Positions 9,841 to 24,786 of a stretch of 64,000 nt of DNA are shown here, piece after piece. The notes beneath the pieces are model-generated. The model ran no database searches. It was given only the letters and a program-made list of their open reading frames with translations, and was not told where the DNA came from. Source of the DNA: Clostridia bacterium (lineage in GTDB: Bacteria; Bacillota; Clostridia; UMGS1883); the NCBI GenBank assembly GCA_017411435.1, contig JAFQQD010000027.1, positions 2,926 through 66,925 of the forward strand, written 5' to 3'. The position numbers and the translations under genes are program-made. Position 1 is the stretch's first letter; every line of letters begins with the position of its first letter.

Positions 9841-9843
9841 TTT

Positions 9844-10437: not shown

Positions 10438-10481
10438 AATTAATGCTATTATAATGACAAGAGATAACGATAACGATTATC
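10424..10481 (+). promoter_or_regulatory. Sigma-A promoter with downstream Fur/PerR box
   Basis: TTGACA 10424-10429, 17-bp spacer, TGcTATTAT 10444-10452; GATAACGATAACGATTATC 10463-10481 is 16/19 to the Fur consensus GATAATGATAATCATTATC. Confidence 0.75.
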
Positions 10482-10503
10482 GTTATTGGCAAGGAGGGAT
10501 TAT

Positions 10504-10863
10504 ATGAGGTATAGCAGACAGCGTGAAGCGCTTCTTGATTTACTTCGCTCGACAAAGTCCCATCCGGACGCAGAATGGTTGTATACCGGACTTCGTAAAG
10601 AATATCCCAATATATCGCTCGGTACAGTCTATCGTAATTTAAGGCAGCTGACTGAGGCGGGGGAAATAATTGAATTGTGTTATGGTAACATTTCACATTT
10701 TGACGGTGACATATCACCCCATTATCATATGAAATGTAATAACTGTAACCGAATTTACGATATACCGATATCAAGCGTTTCGATAAACCTCAGCGGTACA
10801 GACAACTTTGAAGTAGACACAATCAATCTCGTCATAAACGGTACTTGTCGGAATTGTCAGTAA
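10504..10863 (+). CDS. perR: Fur-family regulator, PerR-like
   Basis: [26 protein letters not shown] and C-terminal CxxC; upstream of rubrerythrin; ATG 10504 follows AAGGAGG. Confidence 0.85.
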
Positions 10864-10900
10864 AATAATTAATTTTTATATACGAAAGGAAAAGATTATT

Positions 10901-11488
10901 ATGAAAAAATTTGTATGTTCAGTATGTGGTTATGTTCACGAGGGTACAAATCCTCCCGAGGCTTGTCCCGTATGTAAGGTTCCTGCTGAAAAGTTCAAGG
11001 AAATGCAGGAAGGCGCAGCTCTTGCAGCAGAGCATGAGTATGGCGTATATGCAAAGACAGTAAAAAACAACCCCGATATTTCAGAAGAAGATAAGAAGTA
11101 CATCTTCGAACAGTTGATGGCTAACTTCAACGGCGAATGTAGCGAAGTTGGTATGTACCTTTGCATGGCACGAATTGCTCATCGCGAAGGATATCCTGAA
11201 ATTGGTCTCTACTGGGAAAAGGCAGCTTATGAAGAAGCAGAACACGCTGCAAAGTTTGCAGAGCTTCTCGGCGAAGACCTTGAGCCCAACATGAAGGCTA
11301 CAACAAAAGACAACCTTAAGTGGAGAGTTGACTGTGAATATGGTGCAACTCAGGGTAAGTTTGACCTCGCTTCTTGTGCAAAGAAGAACGGCCTTGATGC
11401 AATCCATGATACAGTTCACGAAATGGCTCGCGACGAAGCTCGACACGGGAAGGCATTAGAAGGTTTGCTCAATAGGTTCTTCAAGTAA
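10901..11488 (+). CDS. rbr: Reverse rubrerythrin (N-terminal rubredoxin site plus di-iron domain); last codons element-derived
   Basis: CSVCGY...CPVC at N-terminus; EAEHA and EARHG di-iron motifs. Confidence 0.93.
11435..11451 (+). repeat. attL core region
   Basis: GAAGCTCGACACGGGAA; 15/17 match to 24161-24177. Confidence 0.85.
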
Positions 11489-11495
11489 GAAAAAT

Positions 11496-11523
11496 AAAGG
11501 GTTTGGAACACTCCAAACCCTTT
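11496..11523 (+). terminator. Element-supplied terminator for the reconstituted rbr
   Basis: AAAGGGTTTGGA-acac-TCCAAACCCTTT followed by T-rich sequence. Confidence 0.85.
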
Positions 11524-11628
11524 TGTTATGCCACTTTTCTTTAATTTTTACTGTTTAGTTCACGAAACTAAAATTGTTTACTGTTCTTGAGAATTCCAGT
11601 GTGTTTTTTAATGGTTTTTTATGAAAAA

Positions 11629-11699
11629 GTGGGCAGTTGGTGGGCAAAACCCACCAAAAAATCACTCTGCCCACCACAAAAAATGCCATTTGCCCACCA
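11629..11699. repeat. Putative integrase arm-type sites near attL
   Basis: GTGGGCAGTTGGTGGGCAAAA 11629-11649 (exact copy at 24080-24100); inverted TGCCCACCA at 11668 and 11691. Confidence 0.7.
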
Positions 11700-11707
11700 A
11701 AGTATTG

Positions 11708-12286
11708 TCAAGTATTACTGTTTATAAACCCTTTGACTTCACTTTTTGCTCTGTTGTTTTCCCTATCAACCTTTAATTCTTTTGAGATAGATATTCTCCC
11801 TATCACTTCTTGTATATCAAGTCTTTTTCTTTCTTCAAAACAATATTCTACTGCATACATAAAGTTTAAATCATAAAACTTGGAATAATACTTGGGGTTA
11901 ATAACAACATATTTATTTCTTCCAATCTTATAAAATGCTATCAAGTTTAGTCTTTCAAGCATATTTAATGTATTATATGTATGTACCACAGAATAACCCA
12001 TTTTTTCTGCAATTTCTTTTATTGAAAGTTTCAAAAGGTTTGTATCTGGTTCTATATGCTTGACATTGATATTTACAAGTAGAATAAAAAAGTTTGTGTA
12101 TTTTCTATCTACACCCAATTTGTTTACAAGAAAATCTAATGCAGTAATATGTATCTTCATAAACTTTCTTTTGTCTTTTTTCTTTTTCTCTGGAAGAACA
12201 ATAGTAGAATACCCTTTACTGTTAATGCTAAAAAGTTCTTTCCAGATTTCATTATGTTCAAGACCACTGATTTGTTTCATATACAC
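11708..12286 (-). CDS. RepL-like winged-helix replication/maintenance protein
   Basis: SIKEIAEKMGYS...TLNMLE HTH followed by G...YVVINP, as in Firmicute RepL-type proteins. Confidence 0.55.
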   Translation of the reverse strand: MYMKQISGLEHNEIWKELFSINSKGYSTIVLPEKKKKDKRKFMKIHITALDFLVNKLGVDRKYTNFFILLVNINVKHIEPDTNLLKLSIKEIAEKMGYSVVHTYNTLNMLERLNLIAFYKIGRNKYVVINPKYYSKFYDLNFMYAVEYCFEERKRLDIQEVIGRISISKELKVDRENNRAKSEVKGFINSNT

Positions 12287-12423
12287 CCCCTAACAAGAGA
12301 AAACTTAAACTGAACTTTATATAAACATAAAATACAGTTTATATTTAAAAATCTTTGAAATGCCCACTGTTGCTTAATTTGTGAGCATTTTTTAATTTTT
12401 GTTATTCTTACTCTTATTAGTAT

Positions 12424-12849
12424 TTATTCTATATCTGCTATGTCAACTAAATCATTTTTGAAAACAAAACAAATCTCTTTTAAATCTCTACACTCTGTTA
12501 TTACATACTCAATGTTGAGAACCCTAAAATAAGTTTGAAAAAAAGCAAAAACTTCTGGAAACCAATTCCTAATTTTTAAAATACCATTTGAAAAATAAAT
12601 GTCTGCATTGTCATACATACTACTTGCATACTCTGCAATGTATTCAACAAGTCTGTATTGATTCACTGCAATAAAACCTTTAATGTTTTCTACTACACCT
12701 TTTTGTAAAAGAGAAGAAACAACATAAGAAATATTTGGTTGAGTGCAACCTATACACTTTGACATTTCTTCTTGGTTAAAATGAAATTGTTTGTTGTTTA
12801 GTAGTGATAATGTTAAAATCTCACTGCTATTTATGAAAAATGCTCCCAT
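12424..12849 (-). CDS. Small winged-helix (MarR-like) DNA-binding protein
   Basis: NQEEMSKCIGCTQPNISYVVSSLLQKGVV; ATG at 12849 follows AAGGAGGTG. Confidence 0.6.
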   Translation of the reverse strand: MGAFFINSSEILTLSLLNNKQFHFNQEEMSKCIGCTQPNISYVVSSLLQKGVVENIKGFIAVNQYRLVEYIAEYASSMYDNADIYFSNGILKIRNWFPEVFAFFQTYFRVLNIEYVITECRDLKEICFVFKNDLVDIADIE

Positions 12850-12977
12850 TTTCCACCTCCTTAAAAATAATATAATTTTGAGTTTATACAAATATAAATC
12901 TCTTTATAATTGTTTTAACACCATTTTATATTACTGTCAAATTATAAAAATATTTATATTTTGGTAAAGGTTTTGAT

Positions 12978-13124
12978 GGACTGCTTAAAAGATACTTTGA
13001 AACAAAACTGGTAAAAAAATCACAAAACTAAATCTGGACCGGTTCTGTGTTAGATTTAATTTCTGCAAAAAATAACCAGTTTTCAAAATAGGGGTTCAAA
13101 GGTCTGTTAGATAGATATTTTGAA
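12978..13124 (+). repeat. 147-bp structured direct repeat, copy A
   Basis: 3 mismatches to 20267-20413; nested inverted arms AAACTGGT/ACCAGTTT and TAAATCT/AGATTTA. Confidence 0.92.
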
Positions 13125-13130
13125 ATAAAA

Positions 13131-13161
13131 AAACTACCAACTGAAAAACAGTTGATAGTTT
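13131..13161 (-). terminator. Intrinsic terminator
   Basis: AAACTACCAACTG-aaaaa-CAGTTGATAGTTT hairpin at the 3' end of 13166-13642. Confidence 0.65.
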
Positions 13162-13165
13162 GCTT

Positions 13166-13642
13166 TTAATCTTCTATTGGTCTTGGAGAAATATTAAAAA
13201 TCTCTTTCTTTTTTCTTCTGGCATAGGTAAAGGTTCTGTATGCTCCCCCATAGTGCCTTTCTATATAGCAAATAACATACTCACAGTTATCTACAACATA
13301 CTCATTTCCTTTTATGATTTGAAACTTCTGGGGAGTGTTCAAGGGTATATCTGCCATAAGAATATTATCATAATCTTTATAATACAGTTCCTTGTATTCA
13401 TTTATGCCTTTGGTTATGTATGGTATAACCAACTCTAATTTTATATCAGTATAAGTTTTCTGCAACTCTCTTATAACAGAAGAAGAACACCCATCAAATC
13501 TGCCATAATGCCCAACCCAGAACTCACTGACATTATGATTTAAAATCAAATCTTCTGCTATTGCTTTTATTTTTTCTCTTGTTTCTTCTGGGTAAGTAAT
13601 ATCACTATGCCCACAGAAACAACACCTTTTTATATTTTCCAT
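13166..13642 (-). CDS. SLOG-superfamily protein (DUF1273/YspA-like)
   Basis: CCFCGH N-terminus; F.VG.YG.FD, N.YVVD and GGAY.T..YA motifs. Confidence 0.7.
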   Translation of the reverse strand: MENIKRCCFCGHSDITYPEETREKIKAIAEDLILNHNVSEFWVGHYGRFDGCSSSVIRELQKTYTDIKLELVIPYITKGINEYKELYYKDYDNILMADIPLNTPQKFQIIKGNEYVVDNCEYVICYIERHYGGAYRTFTYARRKKKEIFNISPRPIED

Positions 13643-13770
13643 AATTACACCTTGCTAAAATACTAAAACTTCCTTGACACAGAAGTTTTATTTTATTATA
13701 CATAATAATCTTTTATTTGTAAATAGTTTATAATTATATATATAAAATAATTATGTAGATAGGTGTTTTT

Positions 13771-14019
13771 ATGAACTATTATAATGAAAAAGAATATCAA
13801 ATGTTTATAATAAAAGTTGGGTTAAAAGTTGGTTATTACAGAAGACTTGCAAATATGACACAAGAGCAGTTGAGTGAAAGCAGTGGTATGTCATTAAACT
13901 TTATTTCTCAATTAGAAGGTCCTTCTGCTCCTTATGTTCCTTCCCTAAAATCACTATTTAAAATAAGTAAAGTGTTAGGTGTTCCAATAAATAAATTAGT
14001 AGATGTAGATAATGATTAA
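13771..14019 (+). CDS. XRE-family HTH regulator
   Basis: YRRLANMTQEQLSE...ISQLE...PSLKSLFKISKVLGV. Confidence 0.88.
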   Translation: MNYYNEKEYQMFIIKVGLKVGYYRRLANMTQEQLSESSGMSLNFISQLEGPSAPYVPSLKSLFKISKVLGVPINKLVDVDND

Positions 14020-14042
14020 AGACTGCCAATGAGCAGTCTTTT

Positions 14043-15044
14043 TTAACTATATAAATAAATCTGTTTCAGGTCCTTTCTTTCCCCACTATGAGATAAGTGC
14101 CTTTGAATAACCATACTTTCTGCTTTTTCTTTACTCCACCCTTTATCAAGATAATATTGTAGTGCAATCTGGCAGTGATATTTTCTAAATTGGTGGTTTT
14201 TCCCACTGACTTCTAACCCCAATTCTTTTGTGATTTTTCTTATTTCATTACTCATAATTTGCCTTGTTGCTTTTGTGTCCTTTGGTAAGTCAAAAAGTCT
14301 GTCAGTTGGGTTCTTGCCTTGTTTCAGTTCTTCAAAAAAACTTCTGTATTCTGGGAGTATAATTCTATAACTATCTTTGCCACCTTTACCTACAATATGA
14401 ACAGTAGAATAAGTGTCTATTCTTCCATCTTTGGTAGTGGTGGTATAGGTATGAGTGTCAAGGTTAATATCTTCTGCTTTTATATTTATGAGTTCAGAAA
14501 CTCTGCAACCTAAAAATGCCATTGTCTTAATCTCATTTTGTCTGTTCCCTTTGTAGTTGCATATCTGTATAATTTCAGTATTTGTGTAAGTTCTTGCAGA
14601 ATTAGTTTTATATGTATCTTCCACCTTGTGTGCCTTTACTTCTTGTGTATAAAACTGCTCACAACCAAACTTTTTGGAACAAGCAATAGAAACTTTTTCC
14701 AACATATTTTTGTATGCAGCAACAGTTTTTTTACTGCAACCTTGTTTTGTGTTCAAATATTCCAGACACATTTTTGGTGTGATTTCTTTAACCATTTTTA
14801 TGTTGTAGTTTTCTTTCAAGAACTTAACAAAGTTTTTGCTTTTCTCTGCCAAGCATTGTGCAGTTCTTTGAGAAAATACATAGTTAATGCTTGTCCCATT
14901 TTTCTTAAACTCCCTTTTGCCAACACTTGAAAAATGAGTGCCATTTTCTCTGTTGTAAATCTCTGTTCTTTTTTCTTGATTTTGCATATTTATTTCTGCA
15001 AGTGCAGTGTGTATTTGATAACCCAAAGACTTATTTTTGCCCAT
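14043..15044 (-). CDS. Second tyrosine recombinase (candidate recombinase-type relaxase)
   Basis: GCRVSEL (R), GKGGK (K), HQFR (HxxR), LSH and terminal Y; no recognisable arm-binding domain. Confidence 0.8.
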   Translation of the reverse strand: MGKNKSLGYQIHTALAEINMQNQEKRTEIYNRENGTHFSSVGKREFKKNGTSINYVFSQRTAQCLAEKSKNFVKFLKENYNIKMVKEITPKMCLEYLNTKQGCSKKTVAAYKNMLEKVSIACSKKFGCEQFYTQEVKAHKVEDTYKTNSARTYTNTEIIQICNYKGNRQNEIKTMAFLGCRVSELINIKAEDINLDTHTYTTTTKDGRIDTYSTVHIVGKGGKDSYRIILPEYRSFFEELKQGKNPTDRLFDLPKDTKATRQIMSNEIRKITKELGLEVSGKNHQFRKYHCQIALQYYLDKGWSKEKAESMVIQRHLSHSGERKDLKQIYLYS

Positions 15045-15073
15045 TTTGAAAATACCCCCTTTTTAATCTGTAT

Positions 15074-15609
15074 TCACTGAAAATGGCAACATTTTCAGTG
15101 ATTTTTCCATAAAAAATGATTTTACACATTTTTTATAATTTTTTTCCTATTAAATACATTTTATTCCTTTTTATTTCTTTTTTCTGGTGCAGTGCAAAAT
15201 TGTTTAGGTTTAAATCAACCTAACCAATTTTGCAACAAAGTTTGGTATAATAAAAACCGGTTTTTTATTATACCAAATATGTGCAAAAAAAATCTGCTAC
15301 AACCAATAGCAGATTTTATCTGTCTTTTGAAAAATCACTCTTTGACTTTTTATAAGTTTAGTATGGCAGTTGCCACAAAGAACTTTTAAAAAGTCCCAAA
15401 AATAATTTATGATAAACACCACAAGTGGTGGAAAGAAAAATTATTTTTCCCTTGTTTCCTTATCAAGAGAAAATGTCTTTTGTGGGAAAGACAAAGAGTG
15501 TAAGAGTGATTTTTTCCAAAAGTTGTGTATAAGTAAAAAGTTTTAATATTATATAGTCTATCTGTAAGTTAAAACTTTATTGTTGCGAGTGCAAGAGTTC
15601 TGCTCTTGC
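15074..15609. other. Non-coding cluster of inverted repeats (candidate oriT/origin)
   Basis: IRs at 15074-15101, 15193-15234, 15241-15277, 15289-15317 and 15591-15609, plus shorter ones; no credible ORF. Confidence 0.55.
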
Positions 15610-15702
15610 TTTTTCTTTTTAAGAAAGGTCTGTTGGGAGTGTATATAAATGAAACCATTTATATTATTGTAGATAAAAAGTAAATACCCTTTTTTACATA
15701 AG

Positions 15703-15733
15703 CAAAGGAGCAGATTTTTTGTCTGCTCCTTTT
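15703..15733 (-). terminator. Terminator of the Xre regulator gene
   Basis: AAAGGAGCAGA-7nt-TCTGCTCCTTT. Confidence 0.7.
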
Positions 15734-15740
15734 GTCATTT

Positions 15741-16793
15741 TTATTTTATATATGAAATCAGTAAATCAGTTAATTTAACTCTAAAACTTTCAATGTCTGT
15801 TTCTGTTGCAGAGAATAAAGGGGAGAAATCAACATTGATAGCATTAACAAACTTATCTTTTCCATTTGTGCAGTTGTCTATCAGTTTTAAAACACTTTCT
15901 GGCATATTGCCATTTTTTAAAGATTGCAGTTTGTTGTAAAAGTCCCTACTGCTTATAGGTGCTCCTTGACTGATAAAATTACTTTGAAAATTGTTGTCAG
16001 TGTAATTTTCAACAACCTTTGCAATTTTATCAAAAATGTTTTCATAACCATAACTTTCTAACTCATTGTAAATGTCTGCATAAATCTGGTCATAGTCTTT
16101 TCTTTGTCTTTCTTCCAGTTCCAGACAGACAAGCAGTGAAAACAAAGTGGAGTATCTTATCTTATTATTAGTAAGAATATCATTGACAATGCAGTTAATG
16201 TCCTTGTCAGTTAGTTCATATTTGATACACCAATAAGGGTAGTTGCCCAAGTCCTTGTATTTCTCTGTATCAAGACCAACATACACTTCATTTGCTACTT
16301 TTATACTTGTTTTCAGTTTTATGTGCTTGTTGCCATTAAGTTTTTGCAGTGCAACAGTCCAGGCAGTAAAAGTGTCAGTTTCTTCTATACTCCTTAATAT
16401 TCTTCTTTCAAGAGCATTACTCAAAGTAATATACTGATACTTCATATAATATGCCTTAACCCAGTCTTGATTTTGCAGATTTTCTATTTCTGCATTTGCC
16501 CCATACAAATATTTTTCCAAGTGCATAATCACAAATTGGTCTATGGGCATAGTTTCCCAACCCACCTTGTTTTTGTATATTTCAAAGAAATTATTAAGAG
16601 TGTCAGTTGTGATACTGTTGCTCCCAGTTGCCTTTTCAAGATTTTTATATGTGTTGAGTTTCATACCCAAAAGTTCTGCCATATCTTCTGCCATAAGATT
16701 TATGTCTTTTCTCATATCTTTAAGGTGCTTTTTCAGTTCTGGTGTCAAATCATACTTTACACCTTGTGTAATATTTCTGCTTTCAGTTCCCAT
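15741..16793 (-). CDS. Large XRE-HTH regulator (probable element repressor) with unknown C-terminal domain
   Basis: LKDMRKDINLMAEDMAELLGMKLNTYKNLE; divergent from xis-int. Confidence 0.72.
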   Translation of the reverse strand: MGTESRNITQGVKYDLTPELKKHLKDMRKDINLMAEDMAELLGMKLNTYKNLEKATGSNSITTDTLNNFFEIYKNKVGWETMPIDQFVIMHLEKYLYGANAEIENLQNQDWVKAYYMKYQYITLSNALERRILRSIEETDTFTAWTVALQKLNGNKHIKLKTSIKVANEVYVGLDTEKYKDLGNYPYWCIKYELTDKDINCIVNDILTNNKIRYSTLFSLLVCLELEERQRKDYDQIYADIYNELESYGYENIFDKIAKVVENYTDNNFQSNFISQGAPISSRDFYNKLQSLKNGNMPESVLKLIDNCTNGKDKFVNAINVDFSPLFSATETDIESFRVKLTDLLISYIK

Positions 16794-16827
16794 TTTGGTT
16801 GTCTCCTTTCCTTATTATATATTATAT

Positions 16828-16975
16828 ACTATACACCAAAAAATCTATTCTGTCAAGTCAAAAATACAAAAATAACACCCCAAGTGTTTTGGAATAAAAA
16901 ATATTTTAAAAATATTTCAAAAAACCATTGACACAATAATTTTTGTATGTTATAATATAAAACACTGAGGGTGTT
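16828..16975. promoter_or_regulatory. Divergent sigma-A promoters with two inverted 15-bp operators
   Basis: Plus strand: TTGACA 16928, 17 bp, TATAAT 16951. Minus strand: TTGACA (16856-16851), 17 bp, TATAGT. Operators AACACCCCAAGTGTT 16874-16888 and AACACTGAGGGTGTT 16961-16975 (13/15 as reverse complements). Confidence 0.8.
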
Positions 16976-17041
16976 AAAATGAAACATTGAAAACAAAATG
17001 TATTGTTTTAACATCATAATTTCAAAAAAGGGAGTGATTAA

Positions 17042-17254
17042 ATGACAACTTCAAGACTTGTGTTAAGTGTTTGTGAAGTAGCAAAGATATTAGGTGTCAA
17101 TAAGGGTTCAGTTTATGCCTTAATACATAGTGGAGCATTATCTGCTATAAAGTTTGGAACATACAAAGTTCCTTCTTTTGAAGTAGATAATTTTCTTCAC
17201 AAGTATTCTGGTTGTGATTTAACTGACCTTAATAATATAAAAACATTAAATTAA
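17042..17254 (+). CDS. xis: Excisionase (HTH_17/MerR-like)
   Basis: LSVCEVAKILGVNKGSVYALIHSGAL.A.KFG; directly upstream of int. Confidence 0.85.
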   Translation: MTTSRLVLSVCEVAKILGVNKGSVYALIHSGALSAIKFGTYKVPSFEVDNFLHKYSGCDLTDLNNIKTLN

Positions 17255-17271
17255 GAAAAGGAGTGTTGAAA

Positions 17272-18492
17272 ATGGCAGAAAAGATTTATGAAGGAACAAG
17301 ATTTAAGGGTGGTAGTTGGAGATACAGAATAAAAATGACACTGCCCAATGGTACAAAAATTAACAAAGAAAAAGCAGGTTTCAAAAGTTCTTATGAGGCA
17401 AGTCAAGCAAGAATTGAAGAGATTGGCAGAATAAAACTCACAAACTTTGTTGAGAAAAAGATAACTTTAAATGAAATGTATAGTCTTTACTTGAAAGAAA
17501 GTGCAACAAAGCAGAAGAGTTATAACACAGTGTTAAGGTATAATTCCATATACAAAAACCATATTGAAAATAGTCTTGGAGAAATGTATGTGGCAAGAAT
17601 ACAACCACTTGACATTACACATTTCTTAAATGAAAAGGCAGAGCAGTATAAGACTGACTACCCTTTGAGTATGTATAACTTTTTCTTGGTTCTCTTTGAT
17701 TTTGCAAGAAAGCATAAGTATATAAATGAAGATATTATGGCATTGGTTGAAAGACCAAGACCTTACACAAGACCAGAAAAGGTGTTGCTAACCCCAGAAG
17801 AGTTTAATGCTCTTGAAAAAAGGTTAATGTCAACAAATGTGCAAGTTGCTTTTACCATAGGAAAAAATAGTGGTTTAAGGGCAAGTGAAGTATATGGGTT
17901 AAGGTGGAGTGATTTTGACTTTGAAAACAACACTTTTGAAGTTAAAAGACAACTTCAAAAAAGGGAAATCAAAGAAGGTGGCAAAGTCTGGCATTTAGTT
18001 CCAGTGAAAACCACAAAAAGTGAAAGAACCATTTATTTTGGAGAAGAGTTTTCCCAGTATATGCAGTTTGTGAAGAAAATGCAAGAAGAAAACAGAAAAA
18101 GACTTGGTAAGTTCTATAAGAGCAACATAATAAATGCTGCAATGGACAAAAATCACCCAGAAATTGTGGAGATTTGGAATGTTGAAGATTTTGTCTGTGT
18201 AAAAGAAAATGGTGCAATGCTTTCTCCAGATAGCAACAAGGTTATTAGCAGAATTGCAAAAGAAATGGGTTTAAAGTTTAACTTCCATTTGTTAAGACAC
18301 TACTATGCAAGTGCCTTACAACAAAATGGTGTTGATATTACAGTTATTAGAGATTGTCTGGGACACTCTAATTTAAGAACCTTGCTTGAAGTCTATTCAC
18401 ATTGCAATGAAGAACAAAGAAGAAGTGCAGGAGCATTGATTGACAGTCTTATGGGTGCTAAAAATCTTATGCCAGAACCAGTGGCAGAGTAA
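17272..18492 (+). CDS. int: Tyrosine integrase with N-terminal arm-binding region
   Basis: GGSWRYRI...GF N-terminus; GLRASE, HLLRH, LGH and VYSH catalytic motifs; ATG 17272 after AAGGAG. Confidence 0.95.
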   Translation: MAEKIYEGTRFKGGSWRYRIKMTLPNGTKINKEKAGFKSSYEASQARIEEIGRIKLTNFVEKKITLNEMYSLYLKESATKQKSYNTVLRYNSIYKNHIENSLGEMYVARIQPLDITHFLNEKAEQYKTDYPLSMYNFFLVLFDFARKHKYINEDIMALVERPRPYTRPEKVLLTPEEFNALEKRLMSTNVQVAFTIGKNSGLRASEVYGLRWSDFDFENNTFEVKRQLQKREIKEGGKVWHLVPVKTTKSERTIYFGEEFSQYMQFVKKMQEENRKRLGKFYKSNIINAAMDKNHPEIVEIWNVEDFVCVKENGAMLSPDSNKVISRIAKEMGLKFNFHLLRHYYASALQQNGVDITVIRDCLGHSNLRTLLEVYSHCNEEQRRSAGALIDSLMGAKNLMPEPVAE

Positions 18493-18513
18493 AGGGTGGT
18501 ATTTCCACCCTTT
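18491..18513 (+). terminator. Hairpin after int
   Basis: AAAGGGTGG-tattt-CCACCCTTT. Confidence 0.6.
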
Positions 18514-18600
18514 ACCTTCTCAAGAGTTGATAATGAAGATACTGTAAATAGTGTTTTCTTTGTTATATATAGAACACAAAAATTAAAAAAATAATTAAAA

Positions 18601-18656
18601 AAGGAGGAGTAGCAGTCAATAGTGGTGTTCCTTTTGCAACTGCTACAAAAGAAAAT
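18601..18656 (+). repeat. SD-hairpin leader, variant 0
   Basis: AAGGAGGA-GTAGCAGT..22 nt..ACTGCTAC-AAAAGAAAAT-ATG. Confidence 0.6.
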
Positions 18657-19094
18657 ATGGAAGTAAAAAAAATCAAAGAATTAGCAAAAGAAAACTTTGA
18701 AAAAGGTTTTTGGGAAAGACATTTTAATTATGCCAGAACCAGTGAAGAAAACCAAAAATGTATGTTGGAAATCATTGAGAAAACTAAAAAAGTTTATGAT
18801 TTGGTTGAAAGTGAAAGTGTTTCATTTGAAGAAAAGTTGAATATGCTTTTTGAAATTGCAGAGAAAGTTTTTGAATATGATTTTGGAATCTGTTTGACAG
18901 AGTGGAAAAAGTATAGTGGCAATATAAATGAGTGTTTACATATAATTGAAATTGATAAAAATGCTCCATATCTAACCCAGTCAAAAAATAGTTTAACTGA
19001 TATTAAAAGCAAAACCTTGTATGGTGCAATAGTTTCCATAAATGTAGGTCTGCTAAAAGAAATATATTTTAATATGAAAGGAGAGTGGGAGTAA
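18657..19094 (+). CDS. Hypothetical protein (cassette 1)
   Basis: 145-aa ORF; its last codons and stop (KGEWE*) are encoded by the next leader repeat. Confidence 0.75.
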   Translation: MEVKKIKELAKENFEKGFWERHFNYARTSEENQKCMLEIIEKTKKVYDLVESESVSFEEKLNMLFEIAEKVFEYDFGICLTEWKKYSGNINECLHIIEIDKNAPYLTQSKNSLTDIKSKTLYGAIVSINVGLLKEIYFNMKGEWE

Positions 19095-19108
19095 ATCTCC
19101 CACAACAA
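19078..19108 (+). repeat. SD-hairpin leader 1
   Basis: AAGGAGA-GTGGGAG-taaat-CTCCCAC-AACAA. Confidence 0.85.
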
Positions 19109-19113
19109 GAAAA

Positions 19114-19374
19114 ATGACTGTTAGAACATTGAAAAAACATTATAAAAAGAACTTCCCAGAAGGACACTTTTTTGATAAAGAAACATTAGAATATTGGGGA
19201 GAGAGTATAAATGCTATGTCAATATCAAAAAACTTGGTTGATTTTAAAGGTCATAAGTGCTATGAATTAGTTGCTCTTCAAAAAAATGATTATCATAACT
19301 TGAATAGATATGTATGGTTTTATTTTGATTGTGAAACTTTTGCATATATTGATTGTAAGTTTAAAAAAGATTAA
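19114..19374 (+). CDS. Hypothetical protein (cassette 2)
   Basis: 86-aa ORF with GHFFDKETLEYWG; aromatic-rich. Confidence 0.75.
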   Translation: MTVRTLKKHYKKNFPEGHFFDKETLEYWGESINAMSISKNLVDFKGHKCYELVALQKNDYHNLNRYVWFYFDCETFAYIDCKFKKD

Positions 19375-19380
19375 AAGTGA

Positions 19381-19412
19381 AAGGAGAGTGGGGACACTGC
19401 TCCCCACAACAA
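19381..19412 (+). repeat. SD-hairpin leader 2
   Basis: AAGGAGA-GTGGGGA-cactgc-TCCCCAC-AACAA. Confidence 0.9.
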
Positions 19413-19419
19413 TTTTATT

Positions 19420-20205
19420 ATGACAAAGTTTGAAAATTATTTTAACAATAAAGACCTTGATAAGAAAACCATTGAAAAATATCTTAAAATCATAGAAAAC
19501 TTGTGTATAGAGTTTGAAGATATAGGTCTACACCCATATAATTATGTTAATGATATGCTATGTATAGCAGAATATTTTGGTGTGGAATTGTGCTACCCAC
19601 TTATCACAGGAGAGAAAGCAGAAAAAATTGTTTTTGAAAAATTAAAATCAAAAATAGAAAATATGGAATATGATTATAATTATGATAATGATACTGAAAC
19701 ACTTATTGACTGGAAAGAACTCAGTGATTTTGTTTATGATATACATAGAAATAGTGAAGATATATATTACTACTATTACAAAACAGATAGCAATTCAGTT
19801 ATGGGTGTTTCTCAACTGGGGGAAGTAGATATAAATAATATTAGAAAAAATCTTTTAGAAAAAATAATAGAGATTGTAGATAATGAACAAGGGAGAGTGG
19901 GGACACTGCTCCCCACAACAGAAAAAATGAAGTATAAAATGAATATAACAATTACCTATAATGACATTGAAACAACCATTGATTTAGATTGTAATTTTTT
20001 TATCATTAAAGAAAATGACTATGGCAACAAATATCATTTGTCAATTACAAACAAATTGGGTTTTAATGAGTGGGTTGATATTAGATATGACACAACCTTT
20101 GATATCAACAAAAAAGAAAAGTATCTTGTGGACTGGGCATATAATTATTGGACTGGTAAAAATGGTGCTTGGGGAATCAAGAGAATTAAAGTCATAAAAC
20201 TATAA
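19420..20205 (+). CDS. Hypothetical protein; in-frame fusion of cassettes 3 and 4 (internal start at 19927)
   Basis: 261-aa ORF that reads through leader 3 as GRVGTLLPTT; in-frame ATG at 19927. Confidence 0.7.
   Translation: MTKFENYFNNKDLDKKTIEKYLKIIENLCIEFEDIGLHPYNYVNDMLCIAEYFGVELCYPLITGEKAEKIVFEKLKSKIENMEYDYNYDNDTETLIDWKELSDFVYDIHRNSEDIYYYYYKTDSNSVMGVSQLGEVDINNIRKNLLEKIIEIVDNEQGRVGTLLPTTEKMKYKMNITITYNDIETTIDLDCNFFIIKENDYGNKYHLSITNKLGFNEWVDIRYDTTFDINKKEKYLVDWAYNYWTGKNGAWGIKRIKVIKL
19889..19920 (+). repeat. SD-hairpin leader 3 (inside ORF)
   Basis: AAGGGAGA-GTGGGGA-cactgc-TCCCCAC-AACA, essentially identical to leader 2. Confidence 0.9.
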
Positions 20206-20212
20206 ATGTATT

Positions 20213-20239
20213 AACCACCAACTATGGCAGTTGGTGGTT
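20213..20239 (+). terminator. Terminator of the cassette array
   Basis: AACCACCAACT-atggc-AGTTGGTGGTT followed by T-rich sequence. Confidence 0.8.
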
Positions 20240-20266
20240 TTCTTATACTCTGGAAAAGGGTTTAAG

Positions 20267-20413
20267 GGACTGTTTAAAAGATACTTTGAAACAGAACTGG
20301 TAAAAAAATCACAAAACTAAATCTGGACCAGTTCTGTGTTAGATTTAATTTCTGCAAAAAATAACCAGTTTTCAAAATAGGGGTTCAAAGGTCTGTTAGA
20401 TAGATATTTTGAA
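20267..20413 (+). repeat. 147-bp structured direct repeat, copy B
   Basis: Near-identical to 12978-13124. Confidence 0.92.
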
Positions 20414-20489
20414 TTATAAAAAAGGTGTTTATAAAGTTCTCTATAAATAAACAATTACAAAAAATAACATAATAAAGGGAGTGCTACAA

Positions 20490-20894
20490 ATGACACCAAC
20501 ATTAAAAGAACAGAAGAAAGAGTGCTTAACCAGATTGAAACTTTCTGGGTTATGCAATGAAGTTATTACAGACTTCAAAAATGGGCAGTTATACAAGACT
20601 GAACAACTGGGTATATTGTATTATATCAATGACAATGAAAAGGCAGTGGTTAAAGACTTTGAAGAAAAAAATAATGCTATGGTATATCATATATTACATA
20701 GTAATACAGAGTTTGGAGAATTACTTGCTTTACTCTATGTCAGTAAATACAAGGAAGAGTGGCAAACTGACAGAGAAGATTTAAAAGATAATATTGCTTT
20801 GTCTTATGTCTATAATGTTGATTGCCCAGATTTCAGTGAGTTTGGTTCTATTGGTTTTGCCCAGAGATTTGGGGGACTTGTGAGAACTGCATAA
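20490..20894 (+). CDS. Hypothetical protein (LYVSKYKEEW...DREDL...SEFGSIG...GGLVR)
   Basis: 134-aa ORF; ATG at 20490 after AAGGGAG; own terminator at about 20897-20943. Confidence 0.8.
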   Translation: MTPTLKEQKKECLTRLKLSGLCNEVITDFKNGQLYKTEQLGILYYINDNEKAVVKDFEEKNNAMVYHILHSNTEFGELLALLYVSKYKEEWQTDREDLKDNIALSYVYNVDCPDFSEFGSIGFAQRFGGLVRTA

Positions 20895-20973
20895 CCCCAC
20901 CACCACCAACCAATAAAAATTATGGTTGAGTGGTGGTTTTTTTTAACTTTTTTATGTTAATTCTGTGAAATTA

Positions 20974-21002
20974 TTGATTTTCCAACAGATATATGGTATA
21001 AT
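20974..21002 (+). promoter_or_regulatory. Sigma-A promoter of the MTase operon
   Basis: TTGATT, 17 bp, TGgTATAAT. Confidence 0.7.
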
Positions 21003-21039
21003 AAATACTAACTATACTTGCATATAGGAGAAGATAAAA

Positions 21040-22188
21040 ATGGCAGGGACAAAAGATTTACATAATGCAAAAAAAGAGAAAAAAGATGAGTTTTATACTC
21101 AACTTGAAGATATAGAACTTGAACTAAAACATTATAGAAATGACTTTAAAGGCAAGGTTATTTTTTGTAATTGTGATGACCCCTATGAAAGTAATTTCTT
21201 TAAATACTTTGCAATGAACTTTAATACTTTTGGACTTAAAAAGTTAATTGCTACTTGTTATGCTACTTCCCCAGTGGCAAACACACAACTTTCTTTGTTT
21301 GATATTTTAGATATGCCAGAAGAAACAGAAGAAGATAACAGAAAACCACATAAAATAGAGATTACAGAAGTTCTGGACTACAATGAAGATGGAGCAGTAG
21401 ATTTAGCAGATGTTGAGTTTCTTTTAAGAAGTAAAAAAAACACTCTTACACTTCTTAATGGAGATGGAGATTTTAGAAGTGAAGAGTGTATAGAACTTTT
21501 AAAACAAGCAGACATAGTTATAACAAACCCACCATTTTCTTTGTTTAGAGAATATGTTGCTCAACTAATTGAATATGACAAGAAGTTTATTATTATAGGA
21601 AATAAAAATGCTATCACTTATAAAGAAATATTTTCTTTAATACAAGAAGAGAAAATGTGGTTGGGTTATAGAAATATAAATGCAGATATGTGGTTTATAG
21701 TTCCAAAAGACTATGAGTGTGAAAAGGTTGTAAATGGTTTAAGAGTTAAGCATATTATGGGTTGTTGGTTCACAAATCTTGACACAACTAAAAGACACGA
21801 AGATTTATTGCTTTTCAAACCATATACCCCAGAAGAATACCCCAAATATGATAATTATGATGCCATAAATGTTGATAAAGTTAGTGATATTCCTTGTGAT
21901 TATGATGGTGTTATTGGAGTTCCTATAACATTTCTTGATAAATACAACCCTAACCAATTTGAAATACTTGGGTTGTCTCAAAAAGTTGGTATGGGGTTAG
22001 AAAGCAACAAGTTTTATGATGATTACAAGGAAGTAAGACAAGATGGCAGTTTTACTGGTAGTTCTGGCAAAAAAACAAATGGAAACCCAGTAATGAAAGG
22101 AAAACCAGAAAAAGGAAATTACTACACTAATGGAACTGATTTTGTATATTCTCTCTATGGAAGAATATTCATAAGGAAAAAAAGGTGA
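21040..22188 (+). CDS. Adenine-specific DNA methyltransferase, EcoRI family
   Basis: K.DEFYTQL, CNCDDP.ESNF, GDFRS.E, ITNPPFSLFREY and GVPITFLDKYNP.QFEI motifs. Confidence 0.92.
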   Translation: MAGTKDLHNAKKEKKDEFYTQLEDIELELKHYRNDFKGKVIFCNCDDPYESNFFKYFAMNFNTFGLKKLIATCYATSPVANTQLSLFDILDMPEETEEDNRKPHKIEITEVLDYNEDGAVDLADVEFLLRSKKNTLTLLNGDGDFRSEECIELLKQADIVITNPPFSLFREYVAQLIEYDKKFIIIGNKNAITYKEIFSLIQEEKMWLGYRNINADMWFIVPKDYECEKVVNGLRVKHIMGCWFTNLDTTKRHEDLLLFKPYTPEEYPKYDNYDAINVDKVSDIPCDYDGVIGVPITFLDKYNPNQFEILGLSQKVGMGLESNKFYDDYKEVRQDGSFTGSSGKKTNGNPVMKGKPEKGNYYTNGTDFVYSLYGRIFIRKKR

Positions 22189-22192
22189 GTTT

Positions 22193-23302
22193 ATGGAAAT
22201 AAGATTAGAAGAAAAAACAATTAGAGAAATCTATAATGGTTATCTTGATAGTGCAGAAAATGGAGTGGTTGCATTTGGTGGAAAATTAAATGTAAGACCA
22301 CCTTTCCAGAGAGAGTTTGTCTATTCTGGCAAACAGAGAGATGCAGTCATTGATACAATACAAAAAGACTTCCCATTAAATGTTATGTATTGGGTTGAAA
22401 ATGACAATGGTTATTATGAACTTCTTGATGGACAACAAAGAACCATAAGCATTTGTCAATATGTGGGTGGAGAATATTCCATAAACCACAGAGCATTTGG
22501 AAACTTGACTGAAACTGAAAAAGAGCAGATTTTGAATTATAAACTAATGATTTATATTTGTAAAGGTAATGACAAAGAGAAATTAGACTGGTTCAAAATC
22601 ATAAATATTGCAGGAGAAAAACTAACAGACCAAGAGTTGAGAAATGCCATTTATACTGGTGAGTGGTTGTCAAATGCAAAAGCATATTTTTCTAAAAATA
22701 ACTGCCCAGCATATCAAATAGCAAGTAAATATATGAGGGGAACACCCATAAGACAAGACTACCTTGAAACAGTCTTAAAATGGGTTTCTGCAAGAGATAA
22801 TATTGACTTGGAAGATTATATGGCAGAACACCAGAACACCACAAATGCAAGTGAATTATGGTTGTATTTCAACAGTGTTATTACTTGGGTAAAAACTATA
22901 TTCCCTAATTACAGAAAAGAAATGCAAGGCATTGAGTGGGGACTGCTCTATAACAAATATGGTAATGATAAACTTGACCCACAAGAACTTGAAAAAAGAA
23001 TAGTTGAGTTAATGCAAGATGATGACATAACAAAAAGAAGTGGCATATATGAATACTTATTAAGTGGAGAAGAAAAATACTTGAACATAAGAAGTTTCAC
23101 AGACACAATGAAAAGAAAAGTCTATGAGAAACAAAAAGGTATATGCCCACATTGTAAAGCAGAGAAGAAAGAGAAAATACACTGGGAGATTGAAGAAATG
23201 GAAGCAGACCACATTACACCTTGGTGTGAAGGAGGAAAAACAGAAATTGAAAATTGCCAAATGCTCTGCAAAGAACATAACAGAAGAAAATCAAGTAAAT
23301 AA
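22193..23302 (+). CDS. DUF262 (GmrS-like) plus C-terminal HNH endonuclease
   Basis: P.FQR, DGQQRT and F..IN motifs; CPHC...MEADHITPW.EGGKT...NCQMLC..HN.RK. Confidence 0.9.
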   Translation: MEIRLEEKTIREIYNGYLDSAENGVVAFGGKLNVRPPFQREFVYSGKQRDAVIDTIQKDFPLNVMYWVENDNGYYELLDGQQRTISICQYVGGEYSINHRAFGNLTETEKEQILNYKLMIYICKGNDKEKLDWFKIINIAGEKLTDQELRNAIYTGEWLSNAKAYFSKNNCPAYQIASKYMRGTPIRQDYLETVLKWVSARDNIDLEDYMAEHQNTTNASELWLYFNSVITWVKTIFPNYRKEMQGIEWGLLYNKYGNDKLDPQELEKRIVELMQDDDITKRSGIYEYLLSGEEKYLNIRSFTDTMKRKVYEKQKGICPHCKAEKKEKIHWEIEEMEADHITPWCEGGKTEIENCQMLCKEHNRRKSSK

Positions 23303-23312
23303 GGAAGAAAAT

Positions 23313-23939
23313 ATGCCAGATTTTTCAATTAAAGCAATAGTTTTAACAATAATTACAACAATAATTACAACTTTAATAGGAATAATAATTAAGGGTATTT
23401 CAATCAGTAAAATAAAAAAATGGTGGGAAGATACAAGAATATATAAGTATTTTAAAAGGTATCAATTTGTTAATGATATTGAAGACAATCAAAAGACCTT
23501 TAGCACCTTTATAACATTAAGCAAAAGTAATACAGACCAAACAAATACAGAATATCAAAAAGCAATGTTTTCCATACAAGACAAATTACATAAAACAGTA
23601 GTTAAAGAAAAGGAACTTTGGGGGAAAATCAAATCAAGTACAACATCTCCAAAGGAAAGAGAAATATTAAATGAATTATTGTCAATAAATAGTGGTGGTA
23701 ATACTGATAATATTTCAAAAAGTGAATTAAAAACTATTGGAGATAAAAGGTTGAAGTGTTGTAAGCAGTATATTAAAACACTAAAAAAATATCAACAAAC
23801 ACCAATAGAGAATTATCAAGTTGAAAAACTTGACTGCTTGAAAGATTATGTTAATGCAACAAAGTCTTATTATGAATTGTTGTATATCTATTTACCCATT
23901 GACAAAAGAAATATTATAGAAAAATCTTTTAATAAATAA
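23313..23939 (+). CDS. Hypothetical protein with N-terminal transmembrane helix
   Basis: IKAIVLTIITTIITTLIGIII; ATG 10 bp after the HNH gene stop. Confidence 0.7.
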   Translation: MPDFSIKAIVLTIITTIITTLIGIIIKGISISKIKKWWEDTRIYKYFKRYQFVNDIEDNQKTFSTFITLSKSNTDQTNTEYQKAMFSIQDKLHKTVVKEKELWGKIKSSTTSPKEREILNELLSINSGGNTDNISKSELKTIGDKRLKCCKQYIKTLKKYQQTPIENYQVEKLDCLKDYVNATKSYYELLYIYLPIDKRNIIEKSFNK

Positions 23940-23944
23940 AAAGA

Positions 23945-23973
23945 TTGCAATATCAAGCAGTATGTGGTATAAT
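23945..23973 (+). promoter_or_regulatory. Outward-facing sigma-A promoter pointing at attR and ftnA
   Basis: TTGCAA, 17 bp, TGgTATAAT; no credible ORF before attR. Confidence 0.65.
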
Positions 23974-24060
23974 AAAAATACATAATCACAGAATATAAAT
24001 ATACTGTGATAAACAGAAACAGACCTAAAACCTTTGGTTTTATGCCCTTATTCTTTGAAA

Positions 24061-24100
24061 TGGTGGGCACAAGAAAAAGGTGGGCAGTTGGTGGGCAAAA
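24061..24100. repeat. Putative integrase arm-type sites near attR
   Basis: TGGTGGGCA 24061; GTGGGCAGTTGGTGGGCAAAA 24080-24100. Confidence 0.7.
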
Positions 24101-24160
24101 TGAGATTGAAAATCACAGAACCCTTGATTTTACTGGGTTTCTGTGAGTAAGTCCCATTGT

Positions 24161-24211
24161 GAGGCTCGCCACGGGAAAGGCTTGGAAGGTCTTTTGAAGA
24201 GATATTTCTAA
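24161..24211 (+). pseudogene. attR with the displaced original 3' end of rubrerythrin
   Basis: Translates EARHGKGLEGLLKRYF*, versus [17 protein letters not shown] at 11435-11488. Confidence 0.9.
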
Positions 24212-24252: not shown

Positions 24253-24270
24253 TAGAAAAGGAGAATGTAT

Positions 24271-24786
24271 ATGTTAAATTCAAAAGTGGCACAATTACTT
24301 AACGAGCAGATAACAAAAGAGTTGTACTCAGCATATCTTTATCTTGATTTTTCTGTCTTCTATGAAGCACAGGGTCTTGACGGCTATGCGAACTGGTACA
24401 TGATTCAGGCGCAGGAGGAAAGAGACCACGCTATGCTCTTTATGAAATATCTTCAGATGTGCGGAGAAAAGGTGTCTCTCGGTGCAATAGACAAGCCTGA
24501 TAAAGTACTCAATACTCTTATGGACCCACTAGTGGCAGGTCTTGAACATGAACAGTATGTTACAAGCCTTATTAACGATATCTACGCTGCCGCGTACGAT
24601 GTAAAAGATTTTAGAACAATGCAGTTCCTTGACTGGTTTGTAAAGGAACAGCTTGAAGAAGAAAAGAATGCAGATGATTTAATCAAGAAAATGGAGCTTT
24701 TTGGAGGAGATTCAAAGGGACTTTATTCTCTTGACGCGGAATACGCAGCAAGAATCTATACTGCACCTTCTCTTGTGCTTGACTGA
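24271..24786 (+). CDS. ftnA: Non-heme ferritin
   Basis: ELYSAYLYL, QAQEERDHA, EQYVT..I and FLDWFVKEQLEEE ferroxidase motifs. Confidence 0.95.
   Translation: MLNSKVAQLLNEQITKELYSAYLYLDFSVFYEAQGLDGYANWYMIQAQEERDHAMLFMKYLQMCGEKVSLGAIDKPDKVLNTLMDPLVAGLEHEQYVTSLINDIYAAAYDVKDFRTMQFLDWFVKEQLEEEKNADDLIKKMELFGGDSKGLYSLDAEYAARIYTAPSLVLD

Follow-up and report, generated by a model that had tools for sequence, protein, structure and literature searches.

We analyzed a 64,000-nt stretch of DNA from an uncultured gut Clostridia genome (contig JAFQQD010000027.1 of GenBank assembly GCA_017411435.1; hereafter the window, whose first letter is position 1) and found that the 3′ end of its rubrerythrin gene, rbr, holds a mobile island of 12.7 kb. 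The island was inserted into the last rbr codons by a lambda-type integrase, and the gene is repaired with the island's own tail and terminator. It belongs to an undescribed and entirely unannotated element family, and the best reading of its base composition is that selection keeps CG and a dozen short restriction targets out of the whole island, cargo included. Overall, we lean toward the view that it is a site-specific integrative island of an undescribed family in uncultured gut Clostridia, operating by the mechanism proposed below.

The host part of the window has ~40% GC and resembles a Clostridia chromosome, with the gene order purL, a Fur/PerR-family regulator (10486–10863), rbr (10901–11488), and ferritin (24265–24786). 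Between rbr and ferritin, from ~11.5 to 24.2 kb, GC is 0.26–0.33 (flanks ~0.40); the CG density typical of the host stops at 11446 and is back at 24167, and only five CGs lie inside (11563, 13040, 15258, 15586, and 21798). The rbr codons for E-A-R-H-G-K are duplicated at the two edges, at 11435 and 24161, so the limits given in a preliminary description of this DNA (11435–24177) are essentially the att sites. The longest identical stretch at the edges is CACGGGAA (11444–11451 and 24170–24177), which gives an island of 12,726 bp, and the att duplication is also present at 10 related loci. The left E-A-R-H-G-K copy reads in frame into the element, whose sequence makes up the final 37 nt of rbr (11452–11488), and the displaced native tail (GLEGLLKRYF, then stop) remains at the right edge with the host terminator. 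A 26-nt near-perfect direct repeat (11624–11649 and 24075–24100) was considered as the att core and rejected, since both the rbr duplication and the change in CG density are found outside it; it represents arm-type sites instead.

The excisionase Xis and the integrase Int, which had been recognized earlier together with an Xre protein in an element of this size, were confirmed by profile matches (HTH_17, Phage_integrase, and HTH_3 for Xre; Table 1), and the arm-binding domain of Int gives a weak Arm-DNA-bind_4 match only (E 1e-3). The presence of this Int correlates with insertion in rbr. The pattern of GTGGGCA repeats at the two ends is identical in every related locus with an Int at least 66% identical and is missing where Int is 41–45% identical; since the pattern tracks the Int type, the clusters behave as expected of arm-type sites. 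The functional att sites are the outer ones, each with GTGGGCA arm-type repeats. The island has its own integration and excision module with flanking att sites (Int, Xis, duplicated core, and arm repeats), by which an integrative and mobilizable element (IME) is recognized (PMC5704250), and arm repeats on both sides of the core together with an excisionase, as in lambda-type systems. The promoters of xis-int and of C350, a helix-turn-helix (HTH) protein, stand back to back and match the consensus at 12/12 (with an extended −10) and 11/12 positions, respectively. This is the layout of a repressor/excision switch in which C350 would be the repressor; across the family C350 has two allele types, only ~35% identical.

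CG is observed at 0.02–0.04 of its expected frequency in the island vs. 0.95 in the host. Expectations for 4-mers were obtained from Markov-1 simulations, in which 0.0 CG-free tetranucleotides were expected to be absent; nine are absent from the island. The depletion extends to palindromes (observed/expected: AGCT 0/36, CATG 0/44, CTAG 0/28, GATC 0/23, GGCC 0/10, GTAC 3/25), to nonpalindromes (GGAT/ATCC 0/66, AGCC/GGCT 1/39, CAGC/GCTG 3/38, CCTG/CAGG 7/48, CCTC/GAGG 7/37), and to longer sites (GTNAC 0/31, CTNAG 2/36, GANTC 3/28, AAATTT 0/35, ATTAAT 0/15.5, CAATTG 0/7.5), and the RAATTY class is found once vs. ~25 expected. TGCA, TTAA, TTTAAA, and AATATT are not avoided. The preliminary description, which had reported a purge of CG and of most GC-containing 4-bp palindromes, was accurate on this point: AGCT, CATG, CTAG, GATC, and GGCC are at zero and TGCA is retained. 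The cargo, a restriction-modification (R-M) system, is likewise CG-free, and its homolog at one related locus (L033; L numbers denote our loci) has a CG observed/expected ratio of 0.8–0.95. The same purge is seen in L001, L002, L020, L021, L023, L025, and L034; it is weaker in elements with a serine integrase and absent both from L019, which has the same architecture, and from phage-like elements.

Deamination was considered as the cause of the CG loss and rejected. Where the CG-normal homologs (L019 and L033) have CG, the window has AG at 56 sites, TG at 48, CA at 21, and other dinucleotides at 82; Arg is encoded by AGR in 109 of 109 codons, and NCG codons are absent. Selection rather than deamination is the better explanation because Arg is always AGR and because deamination can yield neither the AG changes nor the loss of CG-free palindromes. 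The word "stealth" is justified as a description of this composition, and the benefit is one that we infer. The host flanks (1–11400 and 24300–64000) have depletions of their own (observed/expected: ACGT 0/83, GATC 34/152, CTAG 17/41, CATG 94/168), a pattern that suggests that the host has R-M systems directed at these sites.

More than 20 related loci from uncultured gut Clostridia share a common architecture, usually in rbr, and rbr adjoins wherever the flank is visible. The gene order is A192, B155, SLOG, Xre, TyrR2, a noncoding region, C350, Xis, Int, small open reading frames (ORFs), o137, and cargo. The contigs derive from human, goat, and deer gut Clostridia, including a metagenome-assembled genome (MAG) of Ructibacterium, and independent contigs have this architecture beside rbr (L001, L002, L014, L019–L025, L034, and L058–L067); single protein variants are indexed in 50–95 sample blocks, the family being widespread in human and ruminant gut metagenomes. 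All backbone proteins other than the recombinases and the HTH proteins are unnamed orphans. The family is mosaic: nucleotide identity to the window changes from segment to segment (75–93%), Int is 41–94% identical while TyrR2 is 83–95% identical, and the cargo slot holds an NgoBV R-M system, a BpuJI R-M system, that of the window, or other genes. Whole-island megablast against plasmid and phage collections returned no match. The idea of a discrete element that is not self-transmissible and inserts at the 3′ end of rbr is thus borne out in many different genomes. In some copies the island has itself received insertion sequences (L058, 8,970–10,553; L064, 1,527–2,639; DDE_Tnp_1, IS110 family). 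On one contig of 5,274 nt (L028), two copies of the rbr tail enclose a 4.6 kb derivative without Int that encodes TyrR2, Xre, a Fic-domain protein, and a pair of small membrane proteins. This derivative possibly arose by deletion and would then be able to move only in cis with help.

A rival reading on which these loci also bear is that the island descends from a larger prophage or integrative and conjugative element (ICE) as a remnant that no longer moves and is inherited vertically, and that its composition was left by mutation, for instance by methylation-driven decay of CpG in an earlier host. Neither a circle nor an empty site was recovered by terminal-overlap tests or exact-pattern searches, relatives are only 75–93% identical, TG and CA are somewhat enriched in the island (1.33 and 1.21), and decayed att-like relics inside it point to past rearrangement, all of which would fit a remnant. 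However, all island ORFs are intact, the att cores and arm clusters are intact and kept across loci, the same compact architecture recurs at all these loci with no larger parent seen, and modules are exchanged between elements. Host CG is normal around the island, AG is the main replacement for CG, by way of synonymous changes from CGN to AGR, and CG-free palindromes, which lie beyond the reach of deamination, are purged as well. We hold a remnant to be very improbable; the preliminary description would have been overturned by homologs that are ordinary prophage or ICE remnants, and what we found was a compact, mosaic family.

The second tyrosine recombinase, TyrR2, lies beside a hairpin cluster, as had been noted (PF00589 2e-7; folding z = −11 at 15185–15325). 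Its residues R181, K220, H284, R287, H319, and Y330 are invariant in 30 aligned homologs, which gives it the catalytic set of the MOB_M relaxases (DNA_BRE_C, R-K-H/Y-R-H, Tyr nucleophile). The AlphaFold (AF2) model (pLDDT 90.8) has an N-terminal helical domain and aligns over 300–350 columns with IntI4, XerH, XerA, and Cre, core-binding domain included; TyrR2 also gives a weak Phage_int_SAM_1 match. Because the alignment is full-length, TyrR2 is a complete two-domain recombinase; it has the two domains, and no arm-binding domain, of a simple Cre/Xer enzyme. There are ~105 clusters of homologs, all from metagenomes or MAGs and almost none named, and tblastn against the phage collection returned no match. 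The nearest plasmid-borne relatives (26–29% identity) are on small Clostridium perfringens plasmids such as NZ_CP143540.1 and NC_008264.1, all typed as nonmobilizable; on NZ_CP143540.1 (3.4 kb) the relative is the sole large ORF, beside ~1 kb of noncoding DNA.

Upstream of TyrR2 is a 700-nt noncoding region as conserved as the genes, and 15185–15325 folds as single-stranded DNA (ssDNA) with −37.7 kcal/mol vs. −12.1 ± 2.3 in shuffles. It contains a 13-7-13 inverted repeat (15243–15275) with the two ~13-bp inverted arms and 6–8-bp spacer of Cre/Xer targets. The arms are invariant where TyrR2 is 64–100% identical and replaced in the lineage with 43% identity, and the geometry is constant (13-6/7-13) while the 6–7-bp spacer varies in eight lineages. 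The repeat is the likely target of TyrR2, with a lox-, FRT-, or dif-like architecture. A hairpin at 15193–15234 was found in every family member, phage-like ones included; its loop varies from 6 to 11 nt, its outer stem has eight pairs with double changes (95.5% paired vs. 20–54% in slid controls), and its covariation score was reached by 0/500 shuffles. The variable spacing and compensatory changes point to a strand that folds on itself, as DNA or RNA, and away from a dimer site in duplex form. A nick site, a priming or packaging signal, and a 5′-UTR element are all candidate roles.

The preliminary description had the island mobilized by a recombinase-fold relaxase. In its explicit form, TyrR2 would be a MOB_M-type relaxase that nicks an oriT in the upstream hairpin region, and the island an IME mobilized by a co-resident conjugative element. 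TyrR2 does have the full catalytic set, is distinct from the integrase, and stays with the element no matter which integrase the element uses; its gene is directly preceded by a conserved inverted-repeat/hairpin region, as are those of MobK, TcpM, and MpsA (PMC8152469); MOB_M islands with a neighboring integrase are reported to be common (bioRxiv 10.64898/2026.01.13.699239). But MobK, TcpM, and MpsA, the characterized recombinase-fold relaxases, are described as lacking core-binding and arm-binding domains (PMC8152469), and TyrR2, with a full core-binding domain, is set apart from them. BLASTP of TyrR2 against TcpM found no similarity (E = 0.42), pCW3-type plasmids are absent among the TyrR2 tblastn matches, the plasmids with its nearest plasmid-borne relatives are typed as nonmobilizable, and the module also occurs in filamentous-phage-like genomes. 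At one locus (L052, 1,555–6,838) the A192–TyrR2 core adjoins a canonical Mob_Pre (MOB_V) relaxase gene and Band_7/SHOCT genes. Membership of TyrR2 in MOB_M is not supported by sequence or model, given its core-binding domain and the lack of similarity to TcpM. Some relaxase-like activity is possible, and mobilization by this route seems to us unlikely; the similarity to Cre, Xer, and IntI4 over the full length, the adjacent lox-like repeat, and the presence of the module in phage-like elements that would not conjugate all weaken the earlier claim.

The core is found with other partners. Large serine recombinases are joined to TyrR2, Xre, B155, and A192 in ~5.5 kb elements (L003, L026, L031, and L032), and a ~3.6 kb core (B155, A192, TyrR2, and a 119-aa gene) occurs at 96–99% identity in several chromosomal contexts. 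The proposal that such 3.6 kb units are autonomous, with TyrR2 as their integrase, did not stand up: a tyrosine integrase distinct from TyrR2 was found in L035, 3 kb past the core. The serine-integrase elements have at their left end, ~700 nt upstream of TyrR2, a second copy of a 42–55-aa piece from the C terminus of the serine recombinase, which implies an attP inside the 3′ end of the recombinase gene. More distant TyrR2 homologs (43–46% identity, with Xre at 90%) are in elements with small membrane ORFs, a pIII-like 376-aa protein with a signal peptide, and a P-loop protein (Zot PF05707 2.6e-4; PHROG "protein I of M13" 4e-8); the pI-like ATPase and small coat ORFs are present in L039, L006, and L038. 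L039, a related serine-integrase element, is a circular contig of 10.57 kb (10,713 nt with a 141-nt terminal overlap) with small membrane ORFs, the pIII-like protein, the pI/Zot ATPase, the serine recombinase, TyrR2, Xre, and an 84-aa candidate ssDNA-binding protein, and without an HUH Rep. By their gene content, these distant relatives look like Gram-positive filamentous prophages that lack HUH Rep. The core common to rbr islands, serine-integrase elements, and filamentous-phage-like elements, as read from their sequences, comprises TyrR2, the 13-7-13 repeat, the covarying hairpin, Xre, and two winged-helix orphans. In L006 and L007 (9,300–20,900) two TyrR2-bearing elements stand in tandem; the L007 pair consists of a phage-like element with normal CG followed by a CG-depleted one.

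Alternatively, the island could be a satellite of Gram-positive filamentous (inovirus-like) prophages, exported as ssDNA in helper virions, which has kept the helper-type replication and packaging region (TyrR2, lox-like site, invariant hairpin, and Xre) and lacks coat and morphogenesis genes. The TyrR2 homologs, Xre, and the invariant hairpin have equivalent positions in the elements with the pIII-like protein and the pI/Zot ATPase, of which one is circular; TyrR2 is a candidate initiator in these elements because they lack HUH Rep; a phage-like and a nonphage element are in tandem in L007; and the hairpin cluster resembles the Ff intergenic region. Yet none of the phage-like relatives found has a TyrR2 or a 13-7-13 site near those of the window's clade, every examined context of the 333-aa clade being without structural genes, and IMG/VR has no relatives. 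The island genes are on both strands, unlike those of inoviruses, 12.7 kb with an R-M system is large for a filamentous-phage satellite, and the polarity of tyrosine recombinases offers no obvious priming of rolling-circle synthesis. We regard a satellite as decidedly unlikely. It is similarly doubtful that TyrR2, the lox-like site, the invariant hairpin, and Xre form an unrecognized replication-and-export origin for ssDNA elements of gut Firmicutes, with a tyrosine-recombinase-fold enzyme in place of the HUH initiator, used by filamentous prophages and by gene-poor integrated derivatives. If this were true, the island would be the first filamentous-phage satellite family in Firmicutes, one that carries defense cargo, inserts in an oxidative-stress gene, and is recoded to be invisible to most restriction systems.

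We return to the favored reading of a site-specific integrative island. How the island is integrated, its modular make-up, and selection on its composition are shown; the other links of the chain are what we infer. C350 would repress excision by controlling xis-int. Xis and Int would cut out a circle at the rbr core. TyrR2, acting like Cre on the lox-like site, would keep the extrachromosomal form monomeric or else process the circle at the adjacent hairpins, a cluster that would imply a single-stranded stage. To reach new cells the island would borrow a helper, either a conjugative element or a filamentous phage; a helper would be needed because the island has no transfer genes, and the island is probably helper-dependent. 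In keeping with the preliminary description, no capsid, terminase, relaxase, or type IV secretion system (T4SS) gene was matched in Pfam, PHROGs, or NCBIfam, which were run on every ORF of at least 65 aa. In the new cell, site avoidance would let the island survive many R-M systems, and its own R-M cargo would then aid persistence.

Several points weigh against this reading. No oriT, replication initiator, or relaxase was identified in the island, and no circular form, attP junction, or empty attB of it was found. Among ~30 short family contigs examined for terminal overlap, only that of the distant relative L039 was circular, element-sized contigs of ~10.5 kb being integrated copies; an exact-pattern search of JGI metagenome contigs returned 0 reconstructed empty attB sites and 0 attP junctions, an uninformative result given that an exact match was required and gut taxa are possibly missing. 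Identity between elements (75–93%) is similar to that of rbr between hosts, and much of the distribution could therefore be old or partly vertical; the identities are too low to prove recent transfer. The purge is not absolute, since four of the five remaining CGs lie outside any recognized site. The roles given to TyrR2, A192, B155, C350, and the hairpins are suggested by context, and the 13-7-13 repeat could be a palindromic operator or promoter instead, because TGnTATAAT is present on both its strands.

The other parts of the island (Table 1) include A192, which the preliminary description had called RepL-like. This assignment was rejected: nine family members gave no PF05732 match at E ≤ 1, PDB profiles gave no match, and the fold matches are to generic MarR/ArsR winged helices only. 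A192 may serve the core module in replication or in the handling of DNA. Xre is the most conserved protein of the whole family, 90% identical between elements that differ in base composition and in which TyrR2 is only 43–67% identical. The array of small ORFs is indeed punctuated by repeats, with three copies of GAGTGGGR..YCCCACAAC vs. 0 expected. Seven relatives likewise have this hairpin where ORFs meet. In the island, copy three falls within the 261-aa ORF, possibly a fusion of two genes. Each repeat (19077–19120, 19380–19425, and 19889–19932) has GGAG ~35 nt ahead of the next ATG with the hairpin between, an arrangement that may bring a distant Shine-Dalgarno sequence beside the start codon. 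Both copies of a 180-nt direct repeat are kept in relatives, and their ends add four internal att-like relics to attL and attR. A structured RNA was not upheld for this repeat, which has little covariation. Most simply, the repeats would be what remains of internal att sites left by tandem accretion, and they would divide the island into three blocks, namely A192–B155, SLOG through the small ORFs, and o137 with the cargo; a present-day function is possible. The Rfam scan of the island gave one subthreshold chance match only.

The right end is a cargo slot, occupied here by a Type II R-M system. The defense operon of the preliminary description is present and is more exactly an adjacent methyltransferase and endonuclease pair (PADLOC MTase_II and REase_II); the 369-aa endonuclease had first been taken for a GmrSD-type Type IV enzyme, a label replaced after the PADLOC match.

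Table 1. Features of the rbr island in window coordinates
Feature	Position	Strand	Details
Host rubrerythrin rbr	10901..11488	+	195 aa, intact; Pfam RUBY_RBDX 1.7e-14, Rubrerythrin 4e-13
attL core CACGGGAA	11444..11451	+	Identical to attR, within duplicated E-A-R-H-G-K codons
Element-supplied terminator hairpin for repaired rbr (AAAGGGTTTGGA..TCCAAACCCTTT)	11496..11523	.	Kept at left end of related elements
Left arm-type Int binding cluster	11629..11697	.	GTGGGCA at 11629(+), 11640(+), 11668(-), 11691(-); ~190 nt inside attL
A192, orphan winged-helix protein	11708..12286	-	192 aa
B155, second orphan winged-helix protein (MarR/TrmB-like)	12424..12849	-	141 aa from conserved start; always paired with A192
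180-nt direct repeat, copy 1	12954..13133	+	Starts and ends with decayed CG-free rbr-tail-like sequences (GKGFDGLLKRYFE, GFKGLLDRYFE)
SLOG/YpsA-like protein	13166..13642	-	158 aa; Pfam YpsA 3e-5, under curated cut-off; kept in relatives
Xre-type HTH protein	13771..14019	+	82 aa; HTH_3 2e-9; convergent with TyrR2
TyrR2, two-domain Cre/Xer/IntI-like tyrosine recombinase	14043..15044	-	333 aa; PF00589 2e-7
Hairpin directly upstream of TyrR2 ribosome-binding site	15072..15103	-	
Family-wide hairpin	15193..15234	-	Inner stem GGTTAGGTT/AACCTAAAC invariant, conserved G.A mismatch; outer stem covaries
Lox-like 13-7-13 inverted repeat, candidate TyrR2 site	15243..15275	-	33 bp, TGGTATAATAAAA / AACCGGT / TTTTATTATACCA; extended -10 motifs on both strands
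Third cluster hairpin	15287..15319	-	Terminator-like on + strand
C350, candidate master repressor	15741..16793	-	350 aa; N-terminal HTH and large orphan C-terminal domain
Divergent promoter pair	16828..16956	.	16928-16956(+) TTGACA-17-TGnTATAAT for xis-int; 16856-16828(-) for C350
Excisionase Xis	17042..17254	+	HTH_17, E 4e-10
Int, lambda-type tyrosine integrase	17263..18492	+	Phage_integrase 3e-21, SAM_3 8e-11
Small orphan ORF array	18657..20205	+	145, 86, 261 aa; hairpin motif at 19083-19106, 19386-19410, 19895-19919
180-nt direct repeat, copy 2	20243..20422	+	94% identical to copy 1; same rbr-tail-like ends
o137, conserved orphan	20490..20894	+	134 aa; in nearly all Int-type relatives
Type II adenine methyltransferase, EcoRI family	21040..22188	+	Pfam 4.5e-140; PADLOC MTase_II 9e-121
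Type II restriction endonuclease	22193..23302	+	DUF262/ParB-like N-terminal domain and HNH; PADLOC REase_II 8.4e-136, full length; Pfam GmrSD_N, HNH
Membrane-anchored orphan	23313..23939	+	208 aa from internal ATG; kept in L021, L025, L034
Right arm-type cluster	24063..24097	+	Three direct GTGGGCA copies; ~90 nt inside attR
attR core CACGGGAA and displaced native rbr tail (EARHGKGLEGLLKRYF, stop)	24161..24211	+	Core at 24170-24177; host terminator follows

The island offers an unusually clean natural case of how far selection recodes a mobile element to escape restriction, freshly acquired R-M cargo included. It is a natural template for DNA that could be introduced into hard-to-transform gut Clostridia, and its purge profile is a read-out of the dominant restriction specificities in the gut community. 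The recombinase-plus-hairpin module links integrative islands, serine-integrase mini-elements, and filamentous-phage-like genomes, and gives a handle on how islands without a relaxase move. In the literature searched we found no description of a near-total purge of CG and short targets, nor of such a module shared with filamentous-phage-like elements.

Among known systems, the SGI1-type elements with MpsA, TcpM, and MobK resemble the island in having int, xis, and a second, separate recombinase-fold protein (with a replication function in SGI1), a conserved inverted-repeat region just upstream of the recombinase-fold gene, and no mating-pore genes, with helper dependence presumed. They differ in that TyrR2 keeps its core-binding domain, is Cre/Xer/IntI-like without similarity to TcpM, and has a relaxase role that is only putative, and in that the island, in a Gram-positive host, has no identified MpsB-like partner. 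The preliminary description had not recognized the combination of genes in the island as a described family. The family, with its orphan backbone, is indeed undescribed, but the novelty of the concept was overstated, given the similar layout of SGI1 and the MOB_M islands now reported as abundant (bioRxiv 10.64898/2026.01.13.699239).

The pairing of a two-domain recombinase gene with a 13-n-13 site that has conserved arms and a variable spacer, the enzyme being distinct from the chromosomal integration system, recalls Cre-loxP of P1 and Xer/dif multimer resolution. Unlike loxP, the island site has a spacer of 6–7 bp rather than 8, shares bases with promoter-like −10 motifs, and has a conserved hairpin after it, and unlike in P1 no plasmid replication or partition genes were recognized in the island. 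Firmicutes IMEs (Guedon et al. 2017, PMC5704250; Coluzzi et al. 2017, PMC5357655) are likewise small, integrate site-specifically at 3′ ends with gene repair, exchange integration modules, and accrete in tandem, whereas the island lacks a relaxase of a recognized MOB family and a coupling protein and has an orphan backbone. Filamentous prophages and their satellites (CTXphi with RS1/TLC; Roux et al. 2019, PMC6813254) share with it a hairpin-rich noncoding region, tandem arrays, and, through the core relatives, an association with pI/Zot and small ORFs in elements of which one is circular. The island, however, has no pI, coat, or ssDNA-binding genes, the pI-like ATPase and small coat ORFs that are the inovirus hallmark (PMC6813254) not being found in it; it codes on both strands and uses its own integrase rather than host XerCD. 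The phage-inducible chromosomal islands (PICIs), SaPIs included, match it in size (10–15 kb), in int and xis, in a divergent and allele-variable HTH repressor, and in a slot for accessory or defense cargo; unlike them it has no phage-family matches, and no primase/helicase, terS, packaging, or capsid-remodeling or -redirection gene was matched among its ORFs. Outside MOB_M, PICI, inovirus, and RepL definitions alike, it is best filed as a site-specific integrative, helper-dependent island.

In its composition, the island is comparable to phages and plasmids in which short palindromic Type II targets are depleted relative to the host (Shaw et al. 2023, PMC10359461). Its purge goes far beyond these in degree and breadth, with CG virtually absent and with GGAT, GGCT, CAGC, CCTG, CCTC, GTNAC, CTNAG, RAATTY, and ATTAAT purged as well, and it is common to one clade of elements while missing in sister elements.

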